DNA from: Halorhodospira halophila SL1
Lineage (GTDB): Bacteria; Pseudomonadota; Gammaproteobacteria; Nitrococcales; Halorhodospiraceae
Direction of reading: 5' to 3'
Length of the DNA stretch: 32,000 bases
Assembly: GCF_000015585.1 (NCBI RefSeq)
Contig: NC_008789.1
Coordinates: forward strand, 2,130,001-2,162,000
Below are positions 359 through 32,000 of the stretch, piece by piece (position 1 is the first letter of the stretch; each line of letters begins with the position of its first letter). Position numbers and translations under genes: made by a program. The notes beneath the pieces were generated by a model that was given only the letters and a program-made list of their open reading frames with translations, made no database searches and had not been told where the DNA came from.

Positions 359-458
359 GGGCGGCCCGGCCAACGGTACCCCGTTGGGGATATTTGCATG
401 ACATATGCGCGCGTCATGATGGACGGCGCATCTGCAAAGACCAGCAGGGGACCCCGCG

Positions 459-6714: not shown

Positions 6715-6945
6715 TCAAGCGCGCTTGAGCCGGAAGTGGTAGGTGCCGTCCTCTTCCTTCTGCTCAAGCAGCTCGTGCCCGGTCTGCTTGCTGAAGGACT
6801 CAAAGTCCTTCACCGAGCCCGGATCGGTGGCCATGACGTAGAGCACCTCCCCGGCATTCATGGTGGCCAGCGTCTTCTTGGCCTTGAGGATGGGCAGCGG
6901 GCAGTTCAGCCCGGTGGCATCGAGGGATTGATCGAACTCCGCCAT
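6715..6945 (-). CDS. tusA: TusA/SirA-family sulfur carrier protein
   Basis: A 76-aa protein, MAEFDQSLDATGLNCPLPILKAKK..., with the conserved CPxP active-site Cys motif. GGAG precedes the ATG at 6945. Confidence 0.92.
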   Translation of the reverse strand: MAEFDQSLDATGLNCPLPILKAKKTLATMNAGEVLYVMATDPGSVKDFESFSKQTGHELLEQKEEDGTYHFRLKRA

Positions 6946-6957
6946 CTCCGGTGCTCC

Positions 6958-7149
6958 TCAGTTAGACGCGACGATGTGGTCGGTACGGCCTTCCAGGCCG
7001 TCTGCGTAACCCGCCTCATAGCGGTCGGTGATGCGCTGCTCTTCACGCTTGGGGTTCTGCAGATAGCCGCCAATCCAGCCGGCCATGTAGTCGGCATCGA
7101 CCCCCTGTTCCTCCATCCGCCGGACGGCGTCGTAGTACTCCCGATTCAT
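6958..7149 (-). CDS. Small acidic hypothetical protein (63 aa), first gene of the tusA-soeABC operon
   Basis: ATG 7149 follows a GAGAGG Shine-Dalgarno sequence. Codon usage has genome-typical high GC3. Its stop lies 12 nt before the tusA ATG, and that spacer carries the tusA Shine-Dalgarno sequence. I recognise no family. Confidence 0.6.
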   Translation of the reverse strand: MNREYYDAVRRMEEQGVDADYMAGWIGGYLQNPKREEQRITDRYEAGYADGLEGRTDHIVASN

Positions 7150-7437
7150 GGACCGCCTCTCTCAGCTGCCGTGTTGCGACGCTCTGTGGCCCGAAGAATG
7201 CCCATGTCCTGATATATGCAACAACCTGCCAAAGGGGAGACCGGGCCGGGGACGCCTATCCCCGAGGGGGTATTGCGCCTGCCACCGCTCCACCGCCCCC
7301 AGTGGCCTCTCCAAAAGGGAATAGTCCGGCGTGCCGGCTTTCACCCCCCAATGGGTATTCCGCCGATGGACGCGCGGTCCTAGTTTGGATTTTGACCCAT
7401 CGCAATCAACCACCCAAGGCAACCGAGGAGCCTGGCG
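7150..7437. promoter_or_regulatory. Divergent control region between orf63-tusA-soeABC (-) and soxB (+)
   Basis: A 288-bp non-coding gap between divergently oriented operons. It contains TATCCCCGAGGGGGTAT (7257-7273), CCAAAAGGGAATA (7311-7323), GCCAAAGGGG (7228-7237) and GGGTATTCC (7353-7361). Promoter positions were not resolved. Confidence 0.5.
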
Positions 7438-9183
7438 ATGCGCTTATCCCGGCGCGACTTCCTGGAGCTGATGCTGGCCGCCGGTGCGGCCGGCGCGCTG
7501 GCCCGCCCCGGCAAGAGCCTGGCCGGCAGCAACGGCTCGAACGACTGGCGAGCCATCCCGGAGGACTTCTACGACGTGCCGCGACAGGGCAACGTGCACC
7601 TCCTGCACTTCTGCGACCTGCACGGGCAGCTCAAGCCCGTCTACTTCCGCGAGCCCAACATCAACCTGGGCCTCCACGACTTCAAGGGCAAGCCGCCACT
7701 GCTCGTGGGCGAAGAGCTGCTGCGCCACTACCAGCTCGACCGCTTTAGCCCCGCGGCGCACGCCTTCACCCACCTCGACTTCCGCGCGGCAGCCGAATAC
7801 TACGGGCGTGTCGGTGGTGCCGCCCACCTGGCCACGGCGGTCCAACGGGCCCGCGATGAACGCCCCGGCGCACTGCTGCTCGACTCCGGGGACACCTGGC
7901 ACGGGTCCGGCCCGGCCCTGTGGAGCGAGGGCCGGGCCATGGTCGAGTTCCAGAAGAAACTCGGCGTCGACGCCTGCACCGGGCACTGGGAGTTCATCTA
8001 CGGCGACGAACGCGTCCAGGAGCTGGTCGCCGATCTCGACGGCGCCGGGGTCCACTTCCTGGCGCAGAACGTGCTCGACCGCGACTGGCTCGACCCGATC
8101 TTCGACGCCTACAGCATGCACGAGGAGAACGGCGTCCCGGTGGCGGTAGTCGGCCAGGCGTTCCCCTTCACCCCCATCGCCAACCCCGGGTATCTGTTCC
8201 CGCAGTGGGAGATGGGTCACCGACTCGACCGCCTTCAGGAGCAGGTGGACCGGGCGCGCGACGACGGCGCCCAGGTGGTGGTCCTGCTCTCCCACGCCGG
8301 CATGCTCACCGACATGGCCTACGCCCGGCAACTGCGCGGCGTCGACGTCATCCTCGGCGGCCATACCCACGACCCGGTCCCCTACCCGGAGCAGGTGGAG
8401 GATGCGGACGGCGAGTCGACCCTGGTCGTCAACAGCGGCTCCAACGGCAAGCACCTCTCGGTGCTGGATCTCGATGTCCGTGACGGGCGCATCCGCGACT
8501 TCCACTACCGCAACCTGCCGATCTTCTCCAACGCCCTCGAACCCGACCCGGACATGCAGTCCCTGGTCGACGAGGCCTACGCCCCTTACGAGGACAAGCT
8601 CTCTGAGGTGGTCGGCGAGGTCGACGGGGTGCTCTACCGCCGCGGCAACTTCAACGGCACCTTCGATGAAGTGCTCGCCCAGGCCCTGATCGAGGGCCGG
8701 GACGCCGAGGTGGCCTTCACCCCGGGATTCCGCTGGGGCCCGAGTGTTCTGCCGGGCAAGGTCACCTTCGAGGACTGCATGAACCAGACCTGCAGCACCT
8801 ATTCGGAGACCACCCGCAACGAGATGACCGGCGAGGCCATCAAGCACGTCCTCGAGGACGTCGCCAACTCCATCTTCAACGAGGACCCGATGCTCCACCG
8901 CGGCGGCGACATGGTGCGCAGCGCCGGGCTGCGCTACGCCATCGACCCCTCCCGGGGCATGGGGGAGCGCATCACCGACCTGGAGATCAACGGCGAGCCC
9001 ATGGATCCCAAACGCAAGTACGTCGTGGCCAGCTGGGCGGATGTCAACGAGCCCCAGGACGGCCCGCAGGCGTGGGACGTGCTCGCCGACTACTTCCGCA
9101 ATCACAACGCGCTCCGTGTCGAGGAGCCCTATGTGCCGAAGCTCAAGGGGGTCAGCGATGACAATCCGGGCATGGCGCTCTAG
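7438..9183 (+). CDS. soxB: Thiosulfohydrolase SoxB (dimanganese 5'-nucleotidase/metallophosphoesterase family)
   Basis: Tat leader MRLSRRDFLELMLAAGAAGALA. Metallophosphoesterase motifs (FCDLHGQLKP, DSGDTWHGS, LLSHAG, GGHTHD) and a C-terminal 5'-nucleotidase domain are present. It is 581 aa. Confidence 0.93.
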   Translation: MRLSRRDFLELMLAAGAAGALARPGKSLAGSNGSNDWRAIPEDFYDVPRQGNVHLLHFCDLHGQLKPVYFREPNINLGLHDFKGKPPLLVGEELLRHYQLDRFSPAAHAFTHLDFRAAAEYYGRVGGAAHLATAVQRARDERPGALLLDSGDTWHGSGPALWSEGRAMVEFQKKLGVDACTGHWEFIYGDERVQELVADLDGAGVHFLAQNVLDRDWLDPIFDAYSMHEENGVPVAVVGQAFPFTPIANPGYLFPQWEMGHRLDRLQEQVDRARDDGAQVVVLLSHAGMLTDMAYARQLRGVDVILGGHTHDPVPYPEQVEDADGESTLVVNSGSNGKHLSVLDLDVRDGRIRDFHYRNLPIFSNALEPDPDMQSLVDEAYAPYEDKLSEVVGEVDGVLYRRGNFNGTFDEVLAQALIEGRDAEVAFTPGFRWGPSVLPGKVTFEDCMNQTCSTYSETTRNEMTGEAIKHVLEDVANSIFNEDPMLHRGGDMVRSAGLRYAIDPSRGMGERITDLEINGEPMDPKRKYVVASWADVNEPQDGPQAWDVLADYFRNHNALRVEEPYVPKLKGVSDDNPGMAL

Positions 9184-10117
9184 CGCGCTGGGTACTACCG
9201 GAGCAACCGCCTGCGCCCTGGCCTTCACGCCGGCGCTGGCAGCCGATGAGCTGTTCATCCCCGAGGCCGAGCCGGTGGCCGACGGAGTTTACGCCATCAT
9301 CGGACCGACGGACGCACGCACCTACGAGAACCACGGCATGAATGCCAACTACGGCATCGTCGAGACCGATGAGGGCGTGCTCCTCATCGACTCCGGGCCG
9401 ACCGCCTTCAGCGCCGAGCTGATCGAGGAGGCGGTGGCCGAGGTGACCGACACACCGATCCGCTGGGTGTTGAACATCGGCGTCCAGGACCACCGCTGGC
9501 TGGGCAACGACTACTTCCAGCGCGAGCACGACGCCGAGGTCATCGCCTTCGAGGAGACGGCACGCCAGCAGGAGGCGTTCGCCTCGGACCACCTGGAGGG
9601 CCGGCTGAAGGAGGCCGTCGGGGACCGTCTGGAGGGGACCGAGCCGGCCTATGCCGACCGCGAGCTCGAGGGCGAAGAGTCGACGCTGGAGCTCGGCGGC
9701 GTCACCTTCGAGCTGCAGCGCACCGATGCCCACTTCCCCGGCGACGCCATGGCCCACCTGCCCGAGGCCGACGTGGTGTTTACCGGCGACCTGGTCTATG
9801 TCGACCGCATGCTCGGCGTCCACCCGTGGTCGAGCGTTGAGAACGGCTACGAGGCCTACCAGGAACTGGCGGACCTCGGCCCCGAGACGGTGGTGCCGGG
9901 CCACGGACAGGTCAGCGACATGGAACGGGTCGAACGGGACACCGGCGCCTACTACGAGTTCCTCGTCCATGAGGTGGGTGCCGCCGCCGAGGATCTCGAG
10001 CCCCTGGACGAGGTAGTGGAACGACACCGCGAGGAGTCGGCCTTCCAGCACCTGGAGCATTTCGACGGCTGGCACACCACCAACATCAACCGCGCCTACC
10101 TGGAGTTCGAGTGGTAG
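9158..10117 (+). CDS. Periplasmic MBL-fold protein, SoxH-like
   Basis: ATG 9158 follows AAGGGGG and gives a signal peptide MTIRAWRSSALGTTGATACALAFTPALA. MBL-fold landmarks are present (VLLIDSGP, AHFPGD, VVFTGDL, VVPGHG). It sits between soxB and soxY and overlaps the soxB 3' end by 26 nt. Confidence 0.75.
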   Translation: MTIRAWRSSALGTTGATACALAFTPALAADELFIPEAEPVADGVYAIIGPTDARTYENHGMNANYGIVETDEGVLLIDSGPTAFSAELIEEAVAEVTDTPIRWVLNIGVQDHRWLGNDYFQREHDAEVIAFEETARQQEAFASDHLEGRLKEAVGDRLEGTEPAYADRELEGEESTLELGGVTFELQRTDAHFPGDAMAHLPEADVVFTGDLVYVDRMLGVHPWSSVENGYEAYQELADLGPETVVPGHGQVSDMERVERDTGAYYEFLVHEVGAAAEDLEPLDEVVERHREESAFQHLEHFDGWHTTNINRAYLEFEW

Positions 10118-15388: not shown

Positions 15389-16843
15389 ATGACAGCGCGC
15401 AGCCCTACACGCTCGACACACTCGGCAGGCATTGCAGTTACCCTCGGGCTCTGCACCGGTGCGGCAGCCATCAGCCTGCTGGCCACCCAGGGCGCCGGCG
15501 CAGGCGAGGAGGAGCGCAACATCGAGCCGCGCCCGGCCCCCGACGGCATGGACTACCACACCAGCGAAACCTGGGAGTCCCTCGCCACCGAACCCTCCCA
15601 GGGCCGCATCGTCGAAGAGGACGGCGAGAAACGGCAGATTCGCTACGAGTTCGGTGGTTTCCCGGACGAAGAGAACGAAGACTTCAGTGAGTGGCCCACC
15701 CACTCCTACGCCGACGACGCCGACTACCCAGAGCCTCAGGAGGCGGACATCCCCAACGACCTCGAGGGGGATCCCGAGCGCGGCCGGGAGCTGTTCGCCA
15801 AGGGCGAGCTGGGCCCCTGCTCCTCCTGCCACCTGGTCCCGGAGGCGGAGATCGACTCCCCGGGCAACGTCGGCACCGACCTGCGCACCGTGGGTGAGTG
15901 GGCTCCGGATAAAGAGTGGCTCTACCAAGTGGTCTACGACCCGCGGGTCTTCTATGGCGAGGACACCCCCATGCCGCCCTTCGGGGTCAACGGCATGTGG
16001 TCCGAAGAGCAGATCATCGATGTCGTCGCCTACCTGATGACCCTGGAGGGCGACGAGGACGGCGAGCCGATCGCCCCGGAGGGCGTGGACCGCCACTGGG
16101 ACCCCAACGACCGCCCGCCCCTGCAGCCCGCCGGCGAGCACCTGGACCCGTTCGACAATCCGGGGCTGATGCAGGCCGAGCAGATCGCCGTGCCGCTCTG
16201 GGATGAGCCGGCCCCCAACGGCGAGTCCTGCGCCAGCTGCCACGGCGACCTGGAACCGGCCGACGACCTGCGTCCGATCGGCGTCATTGAGGACCTGGAG
16301 GGCGTGGCCACCGAGTACCCGAAGTGGTTCGACGAGTACGACCGAATGATGTCCCTGGAGGACTTCCTGGCGGTCCACGCCAAGGAGGAGCAGGACATGG
16401 AGCTGCCCACGCAGTCGCAGGAGAACCTCTACATGTCGATCCTGGTGCACAGCCAGTCCAACGGCATGGTCTACGATCTGGATGACGACGACCCCAATGT
16501 CCAGGCCGCCATCGAGCGTGGCGAGGAACTCTTCCACCGTCCGGTGGGGCAGCGGGCCCACGCCTGCGCCAACTGCCACACCGATCGGGGCGGCGGGGAC
16601 AAGTGGCTGAGCGGGCGCATGCTGGCCAACATCGAGGCCGACGACACGGCCATGACCAACCACCCCTACTGGCGCACGGCGCAGAGTCGGGTCTGGGACC
16701 TGCGCACCCGCTTCCAGTGGTGCATGACCCCCGTCGGAACCAACTACCTCCCCGGGGACGCACCGGAGTACGCCGACCTGGAGACCTACATTGTCTCCGA
16801 GCAGCAGGGTGAGGAAATCATCGTGCCACGCTACGCCCACTGA
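15389..16843 (+). CDS. soxXA: Fused SoxX-SoxA c-type cytochrome (three heme-binding motifs)
   Basis: A signal peptide is followed by an acidic segment of about 90 aa. Next comes a SoxX-like monoheme domain (GDPERGRELF...CSSCH...MPPFG). A SoxA-like diheme domain follows (CASCH, CANCH and the conserved RFQWCM cysteine). It is a single 484-aa ORF with a GAAGGAGGGGG Shine-Dalgarno sequence. Confidence 0.85.
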   Translation: MTARSPTRSTHSAGIAVTLGLCTGAAAISLLATQGAGAGEEERNIEPRPAPDGMDYHTSETWESLATEPSQGRIVEEDGEKRQIRYEFGGFPDEENEDFSEWPTHSYADDADYPEPQEADIPNDLEGDPERGRELFAKGELGPCSSCHLVPEAEIDSPGNVGTDLRTVGEWAPDKEWLYQVVYDPRVFYGEDTPMPPFGVNGMWSEEQIIDVVAYLMTLEGDEDGEPIAPEGVDRHWDPNDRPPLQPAGEHLDPFDNPGLMQAEQIAVPLWDEPAPNGESCASCHGDLEPADDLRPIGVIEDLEGVATEYPKWFDEYDRMMSLEDFLAVHAKEEQDMELPTQSQENLYMSILVHSQSNGMVYDLDDDDPNVQAAIERGEELFHRPVGQRAHACANCHTDRGGGDKWLSGRMLANIEADDTAMTNHPYWRTAQSRVWDLRTRFQWCMTPVGTNYLPGDAPEYADLETYIVSEQQGEEIIVPRYAH

Positions 16844-16955
16844 GCCCCCCGCCCTGTGTGGCTGCCGGCGGCCGCAGTCCGGACCTCCCGGGCCGCGGCC
16901 GCGGCACTTCCAAGTCCCCGGGGCGTGGCCCCGGACCCGCGCACACGCCGTGCGA

Positions 16956-17531
16956 TCACCCCCGGACCAGGTGCTCGCCGGCACCGACCCCCAGGTTGCC
17001 CAGCAAACCGCCGATCACCGGCCGAAGATCCGCAATCATCTCCGGCCCCTCCACCTCGGTCAGACGACCGTGCAACCACAGATCCCGCGGCCGGTCACTG
17101 GCGTCACAGCCACGCTGGCCAAGCAGATTGTAGGCCGGGAACCCCGGATCCTCGCCGGCGTAATCGATGCGCGCGTACTCGTTGAGACGCTCTCCGGCAC
17201 GGGCCAGGAACGCCTGGCCGGCGTCCGGCGCGCCGCTGTTGTCGCGGATGCCATCGGCCAGGCGCTTGACCATGGCCTCGACCAGCCGGCGGCGCGATTC
17301 ATCCTCCAGACCCCGCAGCCAGGCGAGGCGGTCGGTGTACTGCACGGCGAAGAGCAGCAGCTCCTCCACCAGCGCCAGGTGTCCGCCGGTGCGGTCGGTG
17401 ATCGGTCCGTCTTCCGACAGCGTTCGCACCGCGGAAGTCGCGATGCGCCAGGCACGGATCGACGCCGCGGCGCCGACCTCTTCCGGCTGCTGCTCCTCGC
17501 GGGGCCGGAACCAGTGGGTCTTGGTACGCAT
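16956..17531 (-). CDS. Hypothetical protein (191 aa), translationally coupled to the upstream Cas6/Cmx6-like gene
   Basis: ATG 17531 lies 2 nt after the upstream TGA (TGA-TC-ATG). GC3 and codon usage are typical of the genome throughout. It is predicted to be largely helical, and I recognise no family. Confidence 0.65.
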   Translation of the reverse strand: MRTKTHWFRPREEQQPEEVGAAASIRAWRIATSAVRTLSEDGPITDRTGGHLALVEELLLFAVQYTDRLAWLRGLEDESRRRLVEAMVKRLADGIRDNSGAPDAGQAFLARAGERLNEYARIDYAGEDPGFPAYNLLGQRGCDASDRPRDLWLHGRLTEVEGPEMIADLRPVIGGLLGNLGVGAGEHLVRG

Positions 17532-17533
17532 GA

Positions 17534-18190
17534 TCAGGTCACCGCCTTGTGGGGAAGGAATAGTCCGCAGCCCCAGCAACGGCCGCTGCCCAGACCGCGG
17601 GCCTGGAGCCGGCGCCCGGCCTCAGGGCCCATGCCGTCCACCAGAAGGCTGCGGGTGACTGCCGGCCCGTCGGGGGTCACCAGCGTCTCCTGGCGACCGC
17701 AGAGCAGGCGCTTGGGGTGGATATCCATCTCGGCCAACTCCTGCCGGGCGGCCGCAAGCAGTGCGCTCTCCGCCACCGCGCCGCCGTCCGGGCCCAGGAC
17801 CCGATGGGCGTAAACGGTCGGTGCCGCCGGCAGTTCGCTCAAGCGGGAACCGCCCAATTCCAGGGCCTCGCCGGCGACATCCAGTCCCGCGCCGGCCAGG
17901 CCGGCGACCGCATCGGCATGCGCCCGGGCCACCCGCAGGACCAGCCGGCTGCGTCGTGGCAGCAGGATCGGTTGATCCGGCGTTCGCCACCAGCCGTGGC
18001 CACTGGTCGGCAGATGGGTCACGCGGATGCCCACCTCCCCGGGATCGAGCAGCGGCGCCAACCGAGGTGCCAGGGCGTCGGCCAGGGGCACCGCGTAGGC
18101 CTCAGGCAACACCCGCCCGCGCAGCGGGAAGGCCACATCCACCGCCTCAGCGAGCTCCGGCGCCTGCTCCTCCTCGGTCTCCCAATACAC
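17534..18190 (-). CDS. Cas6/Cmx6-like RAMP-family protein (orphan; no CRISPR or other cas genes in the window)
   Basis: The N-terminus VDVAFPLRGRVLPEAYAVPLADAL, the central LLPRRSRLVLRV...LAGAGLDVAGEALELG, and the C-terminal Gly-rich loop GLGSGRCWGCGLFLP resemble the Cas6 subtype MYXAN (Cmx6) family from memory. The preferred start is GTG 18190, preceded by GGAGG with 5-nt spacing. An alternative ATG at 18268 adds 26 codons with AT-rich, atypical codon usage. Confidence 0.6.
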   Translation of the reverse strand: MYWETEEEQAPELAEAVDVAFPLRGRVLPEAYAVPLADALAPRLAPLLDPGEVGIRVTHLPTSGHGWWRTPDQPILLPRRSRLVLRVARAHADAVAGLAGAGLDVAGEALELGGSRLSELPAAPTVYAHRVLGPDGGAVAESALLAAARQELAEMDIHPKRLLCGRQETLVTPDGPAVTRSLLVDGMGPEAGRRLQARGLGSGRCWGCGLFLPHKAVT

Positions 18191-18403
18191 TGCAGCCTCC
18201 GCACCGTGATGGCTGTCCCGAGTACACCCGCGCGCTGCACGCTGCTCTATATCCCGAAAGGGATACATCAGAATCCTATTCAGCTCCTTGAATGGATATT
18301 CCCTCGCCCCTCCCCCGCTGGCTAGCTTAGGCCACAACCGAAACCGGGCCGCCTCCCGCGGCCCTCGGGTCCGGCAGCCGCAGGCGAGGTGAGGATCAGC
18401 GTC
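18191..18403. promoter_or_regulatory. Divergent control region between the Cmx6-like pair (-) and dsrA (+)
   Basis: This is the most AT-rich short stretch of the island. It has a perfect palindrome TATCCCGAAAGGGATA (18250-18265) and GGATATTCC (18294-18302). A GAGGTGAGGA Shine-Dalgarno sequence precedes dsrA. Confidence 0.5.
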
Positions 18404-19663
18404 ATGACCGACAACACGTACAACACCCCGAAACTCGACGAGCTGGAGACCGGCCCGTGGCCGAGTTTCGTCACCGGGCTCAAGCGTCTGGCCGAGGACA
18501 AGCCCATGATCGCTGGGGTGCTCGGGCAGCTTGAGCACTCCTACACCGACCGCAAGGGCTACTGGAAGGGCGGCACCATCGGTGTCTACGGCTACGGCGG
18601 CGGCATCATCCCGCGCTTCACCGAGCTCAAGGACAACGACGGCAGCCCGCTCTTCCCGGAGGCGCAGGAGTTCCACACCATGCGCTTCATCCCGCCGGCG
18701 GGGATGCACTACTCCACGGAGCTGCTGCGCGACATCTGCGACATCTGGGAGAAACACGGCTCGGGGCTGATCGCCCTGCACGGGCAGACCGGCGACATCA
18801 TGCTCCAGGGCATCACCGCGGATAACGTCCAGGCCTGCTTCGACGAGCTCAACGCCTACGGGCTCGACCTCGGCGGTGCCGGGCCGGCAGTGCGCACCGG
18901 CATGTCCTGCGTCGGCGCCGCCCGCTGCGAGCACTCCTGCTGCAACGAGCAGAAGATCCACCGCCTGCTCGTCAACAACTTCCTCGACGACATGCACCGG
19001 CCCAGCCTGCCTTACAAGTTCAAGTTCAAGGTCTCGGGCTGCGCCAACGACTGCATGAACAGCATCGAGCGCTCGGACTTCGCCGTCATCGGCACCTGGC
19101 GCGACGAGATCCAGGTCGACCAGGCCGAGGTCCAGGCCTTTGTCGAGGCCAAGGGCCGCAAGCACACCATCGACAACGTGGTCAGCCGCTGCCCCTCCGG
19201 CTCCCTGAGCCTGAACGACGACAACACTCTGGAGATCGACAACGACAGCTGCGTGCGCTGCATGCACTGCATCAACGTCATGACCCGGGCCCTGTCTCCG
19301 GGCGAGGACCGCGGCGTCACCATCCTGGTCGGCGGCAAGCGCACCCTGCGCATCGGCGACCTCTTCGGCACCGTGGTCGTGCCCTTCCTGCCGCTGCGCT
19401 GCGACGCCGACTACCAGCGCATCCTCGAGATCGCCCAGGAGATCGTCGACTTCTTCGCCGAGAACGCCCTGGAGCACGAGCGGGTCGGCGAGATGATCGA
19501 GCGCATCGGCCTGGTCAACTTCCTCGAGGCCGTGGGCCTGGAGGTCGACCCGAACATGATCCACGAGCCGCGCTCGATCTCCTACGTCCGCACCGACGAC
19601 TGGGACGAGGAGGCCGAGAAGTGGTACCGGCGCCAACACATGCAGTCCGAGCAGGCCTCGTGA
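18404..19663 (+). CDS. dsrA: Reverse-type dissimilatory sulfite reductase alpha subunit
   Basis: MTDNTYNTPKLDELETGPWPSFV... is a typical DsrA N-terminus. Siroheme/FeS Cys motifs (CVGAARCEHSC, CANDC) and a ferredoxin insert (CPSGS...CVRCMHC) are present. It is 419 aa. Confidence 0.95.
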   Translation: MTDNTYNTPKLDELETGPWPSFVTGLKRLAEDKPMIAGVLGQLEHSYTDRKGYWKGGTIGVYGYGGGIIPRFTELKDNDGSPLFPEAQEFHTMRFIPPAGMHYSTELLRDICDIWEKHGSGLIALHGQTGDIMLQGITADNVQACFDELNAYGLDLGGAGPAVRTGMSCVGAARCEHSCCNEQKIHRLLVNNFLDDMHRPSLPYKFKFKVSGCANDCMNSIERSDFAVIGTWRDEIQVDQAEVQAFVEAKGRKHTIDNVVSRCPSGSLSLNDDNTLEIDNDSCVRCMHCINVMTRALSPGEDRGVTILVGGKRTLRIGDLFGTVVVPFLPLRCDADYQRILEIAQEIVDFFAENALEHERVGEMIERIGLVNFLEAVGLEVDPNMIHEPRSISYVRTDDWDEEAEKWYRRQHMQSEQAS

Positions 19664-29083: not shown

Positions 29084-29091
29084 CGCACACC

Positions 29092-30492
29092 ATGACCCGA
29101 CCCCCCGCCCGGCTCTACCTTTCGGCCCTGCACAAGGGGTCCGGCAAGACCTCCCTGAGCGTCGGGCTCGCCGGGGCCCTAAACCGCCGGGGGCTCGCCG
29201 TCCACCCCTACAAGCGGGGCCCGGACTACATCGACCCCGGCTGGCTGACCCTCGCCAGCGGCCGGCCGTGCCGGAACCTCGACTACCACACCATGGAGTG
29301 CGACGAGATCCGGGCCGAAGTCGCCGCGGCGGATGGCGACCTGGCCCTGATCGAGGGCAACAAGGGGCTGCACGACGGCCTCGACCCCGACGGCCGCGAC
29401 AGCAACGCCGCCCTGGCGGCGGAGTTGCAAGCCCCCATCGTGCTGATCGTGGACGCCCGTGGCATGACCCGCGGGATCGCCCCCACGGTCCTCGGCCACG
29501 CCGGCTTCGACCCGCAGGCCCCGGTTGCCGGCGTGATCCTCAACCGCGTCGGCGGGGCACGCCACGAGCGCAAGCTGCGCCAGGCACTGGAGCGGTACAC
29601 CGACCTCCCGGTGCTCGGCGCCGTGCCCAATCACCCCGAGCTGCACATCGAGGCGCCTTACCTGGGCCTCATCCCGGCGGCGGAGCAGGAACGGGCCCAG
29701 GGGATCGTCGACCTGTGGGCCGACCGGGCCGAGGCGCACCTCGACCTGGAAGGTCTCCGGGAGCTGGCGGCGACCGCCCCGCCGCTCCACGCCCCGGCCC
29801 AGCCGAACACCGCAGCGAGGAGGGCCGACGTCGACATCGGCATCGCCCACGACCGCGCGTTCAACTTCTACTACCCCGGCGACCTGGAGGCCCTGGAGCG
29901 CGCCGGTGCCCGACTCCGCTGGATCGACCTGACCGCTGACACCGAACTTCCTGCCGTGGACGGGCTCATCATCGGCGGTGGCTTCCCGGAACGCCACGCC
30001 GCGGAACTCGCTGCCAACCACGCGATGAAGCGGGCGGTGGCCGAGGCCTCCGCCGCGGGCCTGCCGATCTACGCCGAGTGCGGCGGACTGCTTTACCTGT
30101 GCCGGCGACTGAACACCGGGGACGGCCATCACATCATGGCCGGTGTCTTCCCGCTGGATGCGGAGATGACCGGCCGTCCCCAGGGCCACGGGTACATGAC
30201 CCTGCAGACCACGCCGGAGACCCCCTGGAGTCCGGCGCCCGGGACGACGGCCCTGCCCGCCCACGAATTCCACTACTCCAGACTGCGCGAGCCGGTGCCT
30301 GAGGAACTCCCCTGTGCCTATCGGGTCACCCGCGGGCAGGGGCTCGGCGGGTGCCGCGATGGGCTGATCAAGGGCAATACCGTCGCCTCCTACGCCCACC
30401 TGCGCCACACCTGGACCACCCCCTGGGCCGAGCGATTCGTGGCCTTCGTGCGGGAGCAGAGGCGAAGCGCGGCACCGACCGCCCCTTGCTGA
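29092..30492 (+). CDS. dsrN: DsrN, cobyrinic acid a,c-diamide synthase-like siroheme amidase
   Basis: ATG 29092 lies 8 nt after the dsrP stop. It has a P-loop ALHKGSGKTSLSVGLAG and a CobB/CbiA-type glutamine amidotransferase domain (IYAECGGLLYL...HEFHYS). It is the last gene of the dsr cluster. Confidence 0.9.
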   Translation: MTRPPARLYLSALHKGSGKTSLSVGLAGALNRRGLAVHPYKRGPDYIDPGWLTLASGRPCRNLDYHTMECDEIRAEVAAADGDLALIEGNKGLHDGLDPDGRDSNAALAAELQAPIVLIVDARGMTRGIAPTVLGHAGFDPQAPVAGVILNRVGGARHERKLRQALERYTDLPVLGAVPNHPELHIEAPYLGLIPAAEQERAQGIVDLWADRAEAHLDLEGLRELAATAPPLHAPAQPNTAARRADVDIGIAHDRAFNFYYPGDLEALERAGARLRWIDLTADTELPAVDGLIIGGGFPERHAAELAANHAMKRAVAEASAAGLPIYAECGGLLYLCRRLNTGDGHHIMAGVFPLDAEMTGRPQGHGYMTLQTTPETPWSPAPGTTALPAHEFHYSRLREPVPEELPCAYRVTRGQGLGGCRDGLIKGNTVASYAHLRHTWTTPWAERFVAFVREQRRSAAPTAPC

Positions 30493-30517
30493 CGTTTGCG
30501 TCAGATCAATTTTTTTT
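30489..30517 (+). terminator. Intrinsic terminator candidate after dsrN
   Basis: ctgacg (30489-30494), a tttg loop, then cgtcag (30499-30504). A run of 8 T (30510-30517) follows 5 nt later. This is the only T8 run in the window. Confidence 0.55.
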
Positions 30518-30676
30518 GCCGCTCCCCCCTTTATTCCCGTGTTGGTGATGAATATAGTCTGAATATATGAAGCGGATAGCCGCGGCCTTAAGCGGCTTGA
30601 AGCAACAGCAACGGCCCTAACAAAAACAAGGAATTAAGTTCCCAAAGGGGCCCCCGGTTGACCGTCAGGAGGAGAC

Positions 30677-32000
30677 ATGTACGCTGGGAGAGATACGGAC
30701 CCGACCGGCCCACGCCGGCAGCGGGGGGCAGGAGCTGTCGAGCCCCTCACCGTACGGGAGCCCCGTGGGCACGGCCCCCGGGACGGTGGTGGCAGTGCCG
30801 GCCGTTGGCACCCGGTGCGCCGCCTCCGGGCCCCCCCCACCCCCACGCCCTACCCCGACACCCCGAATGTGCCTGCGTCATCGGCCAGCGAACAGGAGGC
30901 CCTGCACCTGCTCAGCGCCCTCGGCGTGGTGGCGGCCCAGGCGCGGGATCTCGATGAACTGCTTCAGGGCAGCCTGGAACGGCTGATCGAACAGACCGGT
31001 GCCACGGCGGCTGCCGTACGACTCTTCGACGAACAGGGCAGCCTGCGCCTGGTCGAGGCAAGCGGGCTCAACGCCGGCTTTATCGATGCCGAGCGCCGCC
31101 AGCCGGCGGCGGGCTGCTCCTGCGCCATCGCCGGGGAACGCGGCACCGTGCAGTTCCGGGGCGACCTGCGCCAGTGCATCCGCCGCAGCGGCTGCAACCC
31201 GCTGCCCAACCGACCCCAGCTGGCCATGCTGGCGGTGCCGATCCTCGATCCCGCGGGCGAGAGGGTGGGCATCTACAACATCTATCTGGAACCGAGCGAG
31301 GCCCAGCGCTGGATGCATCCGCCACGCATGCTGGAGTGGATCGGGCACCAGCTGGGCGCGGCGATCGCCCGGGTCCGCGACGAGTACCGCAGCCACCAGG
31401 GGGCCCTGCAGGAGGAGCGCAACCTCCTCGCCCACGAGCTGCACGACACGGTTGCCCAGGAGGTGGCCACGCTGCGCCTGCGGGTCCGCCAACTGGAGGA
31501 GCGGGCACGCGGCGATGCCGACACCGCGGCCCTGCTCGCCCCGCTGGAGGATCTGCGCACCCGACTCGACCACACCAACGACCAGGTCCGCACGGTGATG
31601 CAGCAATTCCGTACCCAGGCCCTGGGTACACCGCTGGAGACGGCGCTGAGCCGCCTGGCCAACCGCTTCCGGCGCGACAGCGGCATCGAGGTCCGCCTGA
31701 TCCATCGTTGGCCGGAGCTCGCCCTGGGCGAGCGCGAGCAGCTGCACATCCACCGCATCGTCGAGGAGGCCCTGTCCAACGCCTGGCACCACGGCGGCGC
31801 CCGCAACGTGCGCCTGCAGCTCGAGACCCCCGGCGGGGATCTCTGCCTGCTGATCGAGGACGACGGATGCGGCTTCGTGGTGGACGATGTACCGGACTCC
31901 GACCCGGCCGAGAGCCGGGGACACGGCCTGCGGGGGATGCGCGAGCGCGCCCGCCACCTGGGCGCCATCCTCACCGTGGAGAGCGATCCCGGCCAGGGCA
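30677..32000 (+). CDS. GAF-domain sensor histidine kinase, HisKA_3/NarX-UhpB type (3' end outside the window)
   Basis: This ORF is not in the supplied track because it runs off the window. The frame is open from ATG 30677 (AGGAGGAG Shine-Dalgarno) to 32000. It has a GAF-like region (EALHLLSALGVVAAQARDLDELL...LAVPILDP...IYNIYL) and an H-box EERNLLAHELHDTVAQE. An HATPase_c N-box (IVEEALSNAWHHG) and G-box (DDGCGF...GHGLRGMRERA) follow. The start is uncertain because the first ~70 aa are Pro/Arg/Gly-rich. Confidence 0.8.
   Translation, partial: MYAGRDTDPTGPRRQRGAGAVEPLTVREPRGHGPRDGGGSAGRWHPVRRLRAPPTPTPYPDTPNVPASSASEQEALHLLSALGVVAAQARDLDELLQGSLERLIEQTGATAAAVRLFDEQGSLRLVEASGLNAGFIDAERRQPAAGCSCAIAGERGTVQFRGDLRQCIRRSGCNPLPNRPQLAMLAVPILDPAGERVGIYNIYLEPSEAQRWMHPPRMLEWIGHQLGAAIARVRDEYRSHQGALQEERNLLAHELHDTVAQEVATLRLRVRQLEERARGDADTAALLAPLEDLRTRLDHTNDQVRTVMQQFRTQALGTPLETALSRLANRFRRDSGIEVRLIHRWPELALGEREQLHIHRIVEEALSNAWHHGGARNVRLQLETPGGDLCLLIEDDGCGFVVDDVPDSDPAESRGHGLRGMRERARHLGAILTVESDPGQG

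Follow-up and report, generated by a model that had tools for sequence, protein, structure and literature searches.

Halorhodospira halophila SL1 carries two minus-strand genes between the gene for a fused SoxXA cytochrome and dsrA, the first gene of its dsr operon, and the product of one of them belongs to a protein family that databases label as CRISPR-associated. What is a Cas6-like protein doing among the genes of sulfur oxidation, and what has it to do with the helical protein encoded next to it (hereafter the partner)? The window analysed here is the whole stretch of 32,000 nucleotides from contig NC_008789.1 (assembly GCF_000015585.1, positions 2,130,001 to 2,162,000 of the forward strand), and coordinates given without a locus number refer to it. 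A preliminary description of the locus, made from the sequence alone, had presented the pair as an orphan inserted between soxXA and dsrA and had proposed, as a speculation, that a domesticated Cas6-type protein acts on sulfur-oxidation transcripts or that the pair has another non-CRISPR function tied to Dsr. Very probably the pair serves the oxidative Dsr system as an accessory independent of CRISPR, a conclusion carried by the position of the Cas6-like gene, which is kept beside dsrAB in sulfur oxidisers of two proteobacterial classes.

Identity of the two proteins

The Cas6-like protein matches Pfam family PF09559 with 175.8 bits (cut-off 26.7, E 1.3e-51), profile positions 1-190 of 191 corresponding to residues 43-241 of the open reading frame (ORF) that begins with ATG 18268, and several PADLOC Cas6 models match it with up to 210 bits. 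A profile of its relatives matches one solved protein over the whole length (PDB 8fcj_B, E 4.6e-23), which is the Cas6 of a Cascade complex from a type I-B CRISPR-associated transposon (CAST). The AlphaFold2 model (predicted local distance difference test score, pLDDT, 77.5) contains the beta-alpha-beta pattern twice, as in a double ferredoxin or RNA recognition motif (RRM) fold, and the best Foldseek match is again 8fcj_B (template modelling score, TM, 0.66; E 8e-12), followed by 5yi6, 4c97, 3i4h and Cse3, the best hits all being Cas6 or Cse3 proteins. The protein, named type I-MYXAN Cas6/Cmx6 by NCBI, is a genuine Cas6-fold protein of the repeat-associated mysterious protein (RAMP) group and a member of the Cmx6/PF09559 family by sequence profile and by fold. 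The homology and the double ferredoxin/RRM fold had been anticipated from four peptide motifs, all of which are present in the product, among them the C-terminal glycine-rich loop GLGSGRCWGCGLFLP. The NCBIfam equivalog model TIGR02807 (cas6_cmx6) gives the window protein 81.9 bits, under its cut-off of 98.85, and gives seven dsr-linked relatives 100.6-217.8 bits; dsr-linked and CRISPR-linked members are therefore not told apart by the model. The score of 217.8 bits belongs to a Thiobacillus-type dsr-linked protein and suggests that a protein of this kind is in the TIGR02807 seed alignment. Among 85 Cas6-like sequences, residues R80, R86, G165, G201, G207, C208, G209, F211 and P213 are invariant, and E141 (82/85), Q196, G199 and K215 are nearly so; relatives outside the Halorhodospira clade have only 24-38% identity to the window protein.

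The partner was expected to be a helical protein of 191 amino acids with one cysteine and no known family, and it is so in each respect. The AlphaFold2 model (pLDDT 86) consists of six long helices; no match was found in Pfam, NCBIfam, PADLOC or the PDB sequences, the best Foldseek match to a PDB fold has an E value of 0.43, and a scan of 61 family members gave no consistent Pfam match. A word-indexed search with the partner found only Halorhodospira-like relatives, but an exhaustive profile search with a hidden Markov model (HMM) found 172 uncharacterised representatives of about 180-200 amino acids, in which R2, W7, W28, E57, D67, R68, R80, N98, N113, Y119, W152 and P163 are near-invariant. 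The partner is thus a member of a real, undescribed family.

Gene neighbourhood in other sulfur oxidisers

An alignment of the Cas6-like protein was scanned against one genome per species, which confirmed 588 relatives, and the best 80 were used as loci. ORFs were called in all loci and searched with profiles of both proteins, and the neighbouring genes were clustered. Almost all of the best 80 relatives are from records labelled with genera of sulfur or iron oxidisers or from unclassified gammaproteobacterial or betaproteobacterial metagenome-assembled genomes (MAGs), and the record titles include Ectothiorhodospiraceae, Thiothrix, Thioalkalicoccus, Achromatium, Cocleimonas, Sedimenticolaceae, Acidiferrobacter, Arenicellales, Thiobacillus, Sideroxydans and Rhodoferax. 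In three Halorhodospira-like contigs the pair likewise lies between soxXA and dsrA, with 64-82% identity. The recurrent arrangement consists of dsrLKMCHFEBA and, divergent from it, dsrQ (TauD-like), a gene for a DUF6967-like small protein, in some loci a gene for a 234-amino-acid protein, the Cas6-like gene, a DsrC-like gene, c16 (74 amino acids), c17 (64 amino acids), the partner gene, and genes for a 2-oxoglutarate (2OG)-Fe(II) oxygenase and a glycosyltransferase-3-like protein. Where at least 4.5 kb is available upstream of the Cas6-like gene (61 loci), dsrAB is divergent from it in 56, dsrQ is present in 52 and the DUF6967-like gene in 46; where at least 8 kb is available downstream (54 loci), a DsrC-like gene follows directly in 39 and the partner is present in 37. 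The same cluster emerges independently when the partner is the starting point, in metagenomic contigs L004 and L092, the latter having the order DUF6967, Cas6, TusA, DsrC-like, partner, TauD, divergent from dsrAB. Two further clusters (c15 and c36) that were considered as a conserved dsrA leader are spurious, being alternative-frame ORFs inside dsrA.

The DsrC-like neighbour is a member of PF04358/TIGR03342 in which the two arm cysteines of DsrC are missing. Its C-terminus reads ...GLP-x3-(R/G)KGGY in 52 of the 54 listed copies (the paralogs of loci L016 and L046 end otherwise), and the operon dsrC of the same loci ends in ...GLPKPTGCV. The paralog is seen in loci L015-L089, for example at 10765-11103 of L015.

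At the window locus itself, Pfam scans and clustering of neighbours found no dsrQ, DUF6967-like gene or KGGY-type DsrC paralog; two Halorhodospira MAG contigs retain a DUF6967-like ORF. Because the paralog has no place at this locus and a c17 homolog with tusA lies elsewhere in the window, the H. halophila arrangement is a reduced and dispersed version of the cluster, comprising the Cas6-like/partner pair and a separate c17-tusA unit in the sulfur island. The terms orphan and inserted are therefore inappropriate for a pair that represents, in reduced form, a dsr-adjacent gene cluster of wide conservation and whose partner family comprises about 170 sequence clusters. In gammaproteobacterial and betaproteobacterial sulfur oxidisers the subfamily has a fixed, vertically conserved place next to the oxidative dsr operon, and this synteny, with a CRISPR array at none of the loci, strongly supports the proposed non-CRISPR function tied to Dsr.

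A role on RNA or on protein

What the pair does for the Dsr system is a harder question. The explanation of the locus as a whole that we prefer, with moderate confidence, is a Dsr-linked Cas6-fold accessory that has retained RNA binding: the Cas6-like protein would still bind, and possibly process, structured RNA of the dsr regulon, and together with its partner would be a post-transcriptional accessory of Dsr sulfur oxidation. The glycine-rich loop and the beta-strand arginines of Cas6 contact RNA, and RNA binding is favoured here because both are conserved. The proposal that the protein acts on RNA is, by itself, an inference to be held tentatively.

Candidates for an RNA target were sought near the gene. 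The region between the Cas6-like gene and dsrA contains a perfect palindrome, TATCCC-GAAA-GGGATA, which as RNA can fold with -9 to -11 kcal/mol and which, with similar mini-hairpins in other leaders of the island, had been put forward as a possible substrate. A covariation test was made on 31 distinct sites upstream of dsrA, of which 30 were scored, by comparison with column-preserving shuffles. The pair counts equalled those of the shuffled controls, so that a reading of the palindrome as an RNA hairpin is not supported.

Several results weigh against a retained role on RNA. Neither pairing nor covariation of the palindrome exceeded the shuffles, 204 and 76 of 500 of which reach the respective observed values; the palindrome was not found upstream of dsrA in SUP05-like or betaproteobacterial loci that have the Cas6-like gene; there was no hairpin conserved in every lineage; and RNAalifold predicted no pairs and no consensus structure in the spacer between the Cas6-like and DsrC-like genes of SUP05-like loci. 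The mini-hairpin is thus not supported as the RNA target. Some Cas6 enzymes have a catalytic histidine near the first beta-alpha junction, and an RNA-binding Cas6 is expected to be strongly basic. Asp-His is found at positions 31-32 in 68 of the 85 sequences, but position 32, which is His in most relatives, is Tyr in 9/9 Halorhodospira-clade proteins, and the median isoelectric point (pI) of the family is about 6.6, that of the window protein being 5.9. Catalytic residues vary among Cas6 families (PMC6452270). The partner occurs in four other lineages with no Cas6-like gene nearby, adjoining instead rhodanese and thioredoxin, FeoB, Hpt or PfkB genes; therefore the two families are linked, but not obligatorily. 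The genes that surround the pair elsewhere are of protein-handling and sulfur-handling types (TusA, DsrC-like, two 2OG dioxygenases), which fit a role at the protein level equally well. Finally, the 80 loci were picked by similarity to the Halorhodospira protein and describe its subfamily, not all of PF09559.

About equally likely, and to be held just as tentatively, is a role at the protein level, in which the Cas6 fold would have lost its RNA function and, with the partner, would be a scaffold, chaperone or ligand-binding subunit serving DsrAB in a pathway of sulfur relay or protein modification that includes the KGGY-type DsrC paralog, TusA, DsrQ and the 2OG dioxygenases; in that case an anion or a peptide tail, not RNA, would be the ligand of the glycine-rich loop. 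The frequent DsrC-like gene directly downstream with its strictly conserved KGGY end, the TusA gene of L092, the TauD-like and 2OG-Fe(II) oxygenase genes, and the rhodanese and thioredoxin genes beside a solitary partner all argue for such a role, as do the near-neutral pI, the failure to detect a structured RNA, and the tyrosine of Halorhodospira in place of the putative catalytic histidine. Nevertheless, the most strictly conserved elements of the protein are the loop and the arginines that contact RNA in Cas6; no cysteine is both invariant and specific to the subfamily, C164 being present in 75 of the 85 sequences and C208 being shared with a genuine Cas6; and a Cas6 fold engaged in sulfur transfer would, as far as we know, be without precedent.

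In SUP05-like marine gammaproteobacteria, the spacer ahead of the DsrC-like gene contains a conserved TAGACT-N17-TAGAAT block (loci L015, L016, L019, L023-L036 and L046), which by inspection looks like an internal sigma-70-type promoter for that gene.

CRISPR context

Could the protein instead be an ordinary Cas6 that acts in trans, processing the precursor CRISPR RNA (pre-crRNA) of an array elsewhere in the genome, with its position beside dsrA being incidental? Its NCBI name and the relatives that exceed the TIGR02807 cut-off are consistent with this possibility, and the genome paper of H. halophila SL1 shows a map ring for "CRISPR-associated protein genes", giving no detail of CRISPR, from which other cas genes may exist elsewhere in the genome. 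However, an incidental position is hard to reconcile with a dsrAB neighbour that is kept across two proteobacterial classes in proteins so divergent in sequence, or with a gene embedded in a conserved non-cas operon; the window protein itself falls short of the TIGR02807 cut-off; and a k-mer scan of 90 sequences (89 loci and the window) found no genuine CRISPR array. On the evidence of these loci and the window, a Cas6 acting in trans is very improbable. The lack of CRISPR repeats, other cas genes and mobile-element genes that had been noted for the window was upheld by repeat, Rfam and Pfam scans: in the 32 kb there is neither a CRISPR array nor a tandem array of that kind, Rfam has no match, and the window genes have no Cas family besides the Cas6-like protein and no mobile-element family. 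Rfam, including its CRISPR repeat families, had no match in eight diverse loci either.

The single candidate array of the k-mer scan, in locus L058 (Candidatus Achromatium palustre), was rejected as a tandem repeat of which the whole 57-bp unit is repeated. At least seven copies occupy 17011-17591 of that contig, 6.5 kb downstream of the Cas6-like gene and extending to the contig end.

The shared control region

The extent of the region between the Cas6-like gene and dsrA depends upon the start codon of the former, which had been placed at ATG 18268. The family-wide N-terminus M-[YFL]-W-x-E begins at GTG 18190; the NCBI model of the protein has 218 amino acids; in each of the three related contigs the gene was called from the equivalent of 18190; and an intergenic alignment of the window with these contigs shows frame-breaking indels between ATG 18268 and GTG 18190. 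For these reasons the start is assigned to GTG 18190, and the first 26 codons of the longer ORF are translated conserved non-coding DNA, palindrome included. It follows that the palindrome is intergenic and does not form codons 2-7. A shared control region of 214 bp, which had been described together with the ATG start, is compatible only with the corrected start, and then measures 213 bp (18191-18403).

Two elements are conserved in the Halorhodospira intergenic region, the palindrome and a block that contains ATTC-N8-GAAT. The palindrome was found where it had been described and is perfect. Of the further claim that similar mini-hairpins recur in other leaders, the part that holds concerns the full 16-mer, which is enriched at sulfur-gene promoters (2 sites at three mismatches or fewer, with 0.11 expected; the copy at 7257 was found by a separate scan); the loose form CCC-N4-GGG is not enriched (37 found, 41.6 expected). 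Near-copies in related contigs lie at the soxXA/thioredoxin and soxB promoters, and copies in L001 are at 7914, 10905 and 15183. In 33 of 68 loci, from many gammaproteobacterial lineages, the palindrome with two mismatches or fewer lies ahead of the dsrA start by about 100-260 nt. Of its two arms, the one nearer dsrA (GGGATA) is the better conserved, and the central four nucleotides, in the sense of dsrA, are mostly N-A-A-N. Because there is no covariation, the arms are asymmetric, and the element is absent from lineages that have the Cas6-like gene, TATCCC-N4-GGGATA is more likely to be a DNA operator with one strong half-site than an RNA hairpin, as far as the sequence can tell. Other palindromes are found about 190 nt upstream of the GPWP motif of betaproteobacterial dsrA, namely GGTAGG-N6-CCTACC (L071, L077, L079 and L086) and TGGGTA-N8-TACCCA (L081 and L085); these could be forms that the operator takes in particular lineages.

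SqrR, a sulfide-responsive repressor of the ArsR family, has ATTC-N8-GAAT as its deduced recognition sequence (PMC9774250). The block is present as a single copy in the window (0.07 expected) and is conserved in contigs of the Halorhodospira clade, which suggests persulfide-responsive or sulfide-responsive repression of dsrA and the Cas6-like gene. The pair probably shares the sulfide-responsive control of dsrA, and it is probably expressed together with the sulfur-oxidation genes, because the 213-bp region has both the SqrR-type site and a palindrome that is also present at the soxB and cysG promoters. L001, L002 and L003 preserve the stem of the G+C-rich hairpin at 18346-18364 in different sequences, and a terminator scan also flagged the element on the minus strand; as a 5' stem-loop it may stabilise the dsr mRNA.

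A regulatory protein for such an operator might be sought in the pair itself, either protein or both binding TATCCC-N4-GGGATA to control the dsr, sox and cysG promoters. The Cas6-like gene adjoins the operator, which recurs at 377, 7257 and 18250 and upstream of dsrA in some 30 loci, and no neighbouring gene of the window encodes a known DNA-binding domain; but Pfam gives no DNA-binding family for either protein, binding of duplex DNA by a Cas6 fold is not known to us, and SUP05-like and betaproteobacterial loci keep the Cas6-like gene with no such operator upstream of dsrA. It is hardly likely that the pair is the regulator.

Integrity and selection

The two minus-strand genes are joined by the TGA-TC-ATG junction that had been described (stop codon 17534-17536, ATG 17531-17529), and translation of the partner is probably coupled to that of the Cas6-like gene. 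The base composition is native, as had been claimed of the codon usage: the G+C content at third codon positions (GC3) of the pair is 0.84, and on this ground and that of the conserved synteny a recent insertion was rejected. Measured against Halorhodospira-like relatives, the ratio of nonsynonymous to synonymous substitution rates (dN/dS) is 0.19-0.38 in the Cas6-like gene, 0.05-0.32 in the partner gene, 0.29-0.32 in soxXA and 0.13-0.25 in dsrA. Both ORFs are intact and under purifying selection similar to that on soxXA and dsrA. That a solitary cas-like gene in a window with no array is what a vanished CRISPR-Cas locus has left behind, decaying and by now functionless, is scarcely credible for intact ORFs under purifying selection, with motifs invariant in 85 sequences and synteny conserved across classes, and a pseudogene is contradicted by dN/dS.

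Relation to known systems

The closest known counterparts of the Cas6-like protein are the Cas6/Cmx6 proteins of type I-B systems (MYXAN variant) and of type I-B CAST Cascade, with which it has in common a length of about 200-220 amino acids and the double ferredoxin/RRM fold. With Cas6 of the 8fcj_B type it also shares profile homology over the whole protein and the C-terminal loop ...G-x-G-x5-(G)CG-x-F-x-P, but residues R80, E141, C164 and G207 differ from the aligned residues of 8fcj_B, and the pI is near neutral. Unlike a CRISPR Cas6 gene, the Cas6-like gene has no array, cas1, cas2, cas3, cas5, cas7 or cas8 nearby and stands beside dsrAB in a non-cas operon. Modules derived from CRISPR have been recruited elsewhere, including the type I-E-derived cas5-8 with a STAND NTPase in Streptomyces, haloarchaeal HRAMP, type IV systems and CASTs (PMC8730458). 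Like the Cas6-like protein, these are Cas proteins with no adaptation module or array and with a presumed new function; however, they are derivatives of multi-subunit effectors, related to defence or mobile elements and patchy in distribution, whereas the Cas6-like protein is a single homolog in a core energy-metabolism locus and is inherited with that locus.

Of the accessory genes, dsrQ (tauD-like) was named upstream of dsr clusters by Lenk et al. 2012, as reported in the available part of PMC7596348. It is divergent from dsrA and is the first gene of the Cas6-like cluster in most loci, and the H. halophila locus differs in having none. In the same part of PMC7596348 only dsrQ is named, with no mention of the Cas6-like protein, DUF6967, the KGGY-type paralog, c16, c17 or the partner. 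The paralog resembles those DsrC/TusE members that lack the catalytic cysteines in being a PF04358/TIGR03342 protein, but has a distinct KGGY C-terminus. No paper in the searchable literature links Cas6 to dsr or mentions the Cas6-like gene or the other unnamed members of the cluster. What is known, therefore, is the protein family and its annotation as Cas6/Cmx6; what is undescribed in the searchable literature is the fixed association with dsr, the accessory cluster and the partner family.

To CRISPR biology this would offer a single Cas6-fold protein that is widespread, apparently inherited vertically and outside any CRISPR-Cas or mobile-element context, and its place beside dsr bears on the recruitment and exaptation of RAMP proteins. 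The labels of PF09559, TIGR02807 and PADLOC call a gene of sulfur oxidisers "CRISPR-associated", which is not linked to CRISPR at any locus examined. The protein appears to have been recruited for a job in sulfur metabolism. A more specific idea, and a rather unlikely one, is that the dsr-linked Cas6-like proteins are functional RAMPs, binding or processing RNA, that were domesticated to regulate the Dsr sulfur-oxidation regulon post-transcriptionally as their dedicated task, or else represent a non-defence ancestor from which type I-B systems recruited Cmx6-type Cas6; either way, if true, an RNA-binding protein of a CRISPR family would be fixed in core energy metabolism across hundreds of species, and would act together with a DsrC paralog devoid of cysteines and a new family of helical partners. 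For sulfur microbiology, there is a conserved, uncharacterised accessory set beside oxidative dsr, consisting of the Cas6-like protein, the partner, DUF6967, the KGGY-type DsrC paralog, c16 and c17 in addition to the already named dsrQ, and there is a conserved promoter palindrome common to the dsrA, soxB and cysG leaders that looks like the operator of a sulfur-oxidation regulator. The set and the palindrome are concrete targets for long-open questions about the regulation and assembly of Dsr sulfur oxidation.

Features of the window

Table 1. Coordinates of the genes and sequence elements discussed, in the 32,000-nucleotide window.
Feature	Position	Strand	Remarks
Palindrome copy TACCCCGTTGGGGATA	377..392		Upstream of the sirohaem synthase gene cysG
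tusA	6715..6945	-	Downstream of the c17 homolog
c17 homolog (MNREYYDAVRRMEEQGVDADYMAGWIGGYLQNPKREEQR...)	6958..7149	-	63 amino acids, unannotated in appearance; conserved small-protein family; upstream of tusA, divergent from soxB
Palindrome copy TATCCCCGAGGGGGTA	7257..7272		Between c17-tusA and soxB; separate scan
soxXA	15389..16843	+	Fused cytochrome gene, convergent with the partner gene
G+C-rich inverted repeat	16868..16902		Between the convergent soxXA and partner genes; possible bidirectional terminator
Partner gene	16956..17531	-	191 amino acids plus stop; all-alpha, six helices
Cas6-like gene	17534..18190	-	Cmx6/PF09559 family; 218 amino acids plus stop; GTG start 18190 with GGAGG ahead
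Divergent control region	18191..18403		213 bp, common to the Cas6-like gene and dsrA
Palindrome TATCCC-GAAA-GGGATA (TATCCCGAAAGGGATA)	18250..18265		Perfect; probable transcription-factor operator
ATTC-N8-GAAT (ATTCAGCTCCTTGAAT)	18278..18293		Matches the deduced SqrR/BigR-type site
G+C-rich hairpin	18346..18364		About 40 nt upstream of the dsrA start
dsrA	18404..19663	+	Heads the dsrABEFHCMKL(JOP) operon; transcribed away from the Cas6-like gene

According to Pfam scans, the window is a sulfur-oxidation island that comprises cysG, three genes of a molybdopterin oxidoreductase, tusA, soxB, soxYZ, a DsrE-like gene, a thioredoxin gene, fccAB, a porin gene, the fused soxXA, the Cas6-like/partner pair, dsrABEFHCMKL and a gene for a GAF histidine kinase (30662-31999). 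The genes dsrJOP probably follow dsrABEFHCMKL, as judged from the ORFs that were scanned, those of Fe-S and NrfD size. In the stretch of about 1.6 kb from dsrP to the histidine kinase gene (29084-30660), the two ORFs that were tried had no Pfam match. Between soxB and soxY there is a gene for a metallo-beta-lactamase-fold protein (9041-10117, plus strand); as called mechanically, its ORF overlaps soxB at the 3' end of the latter.

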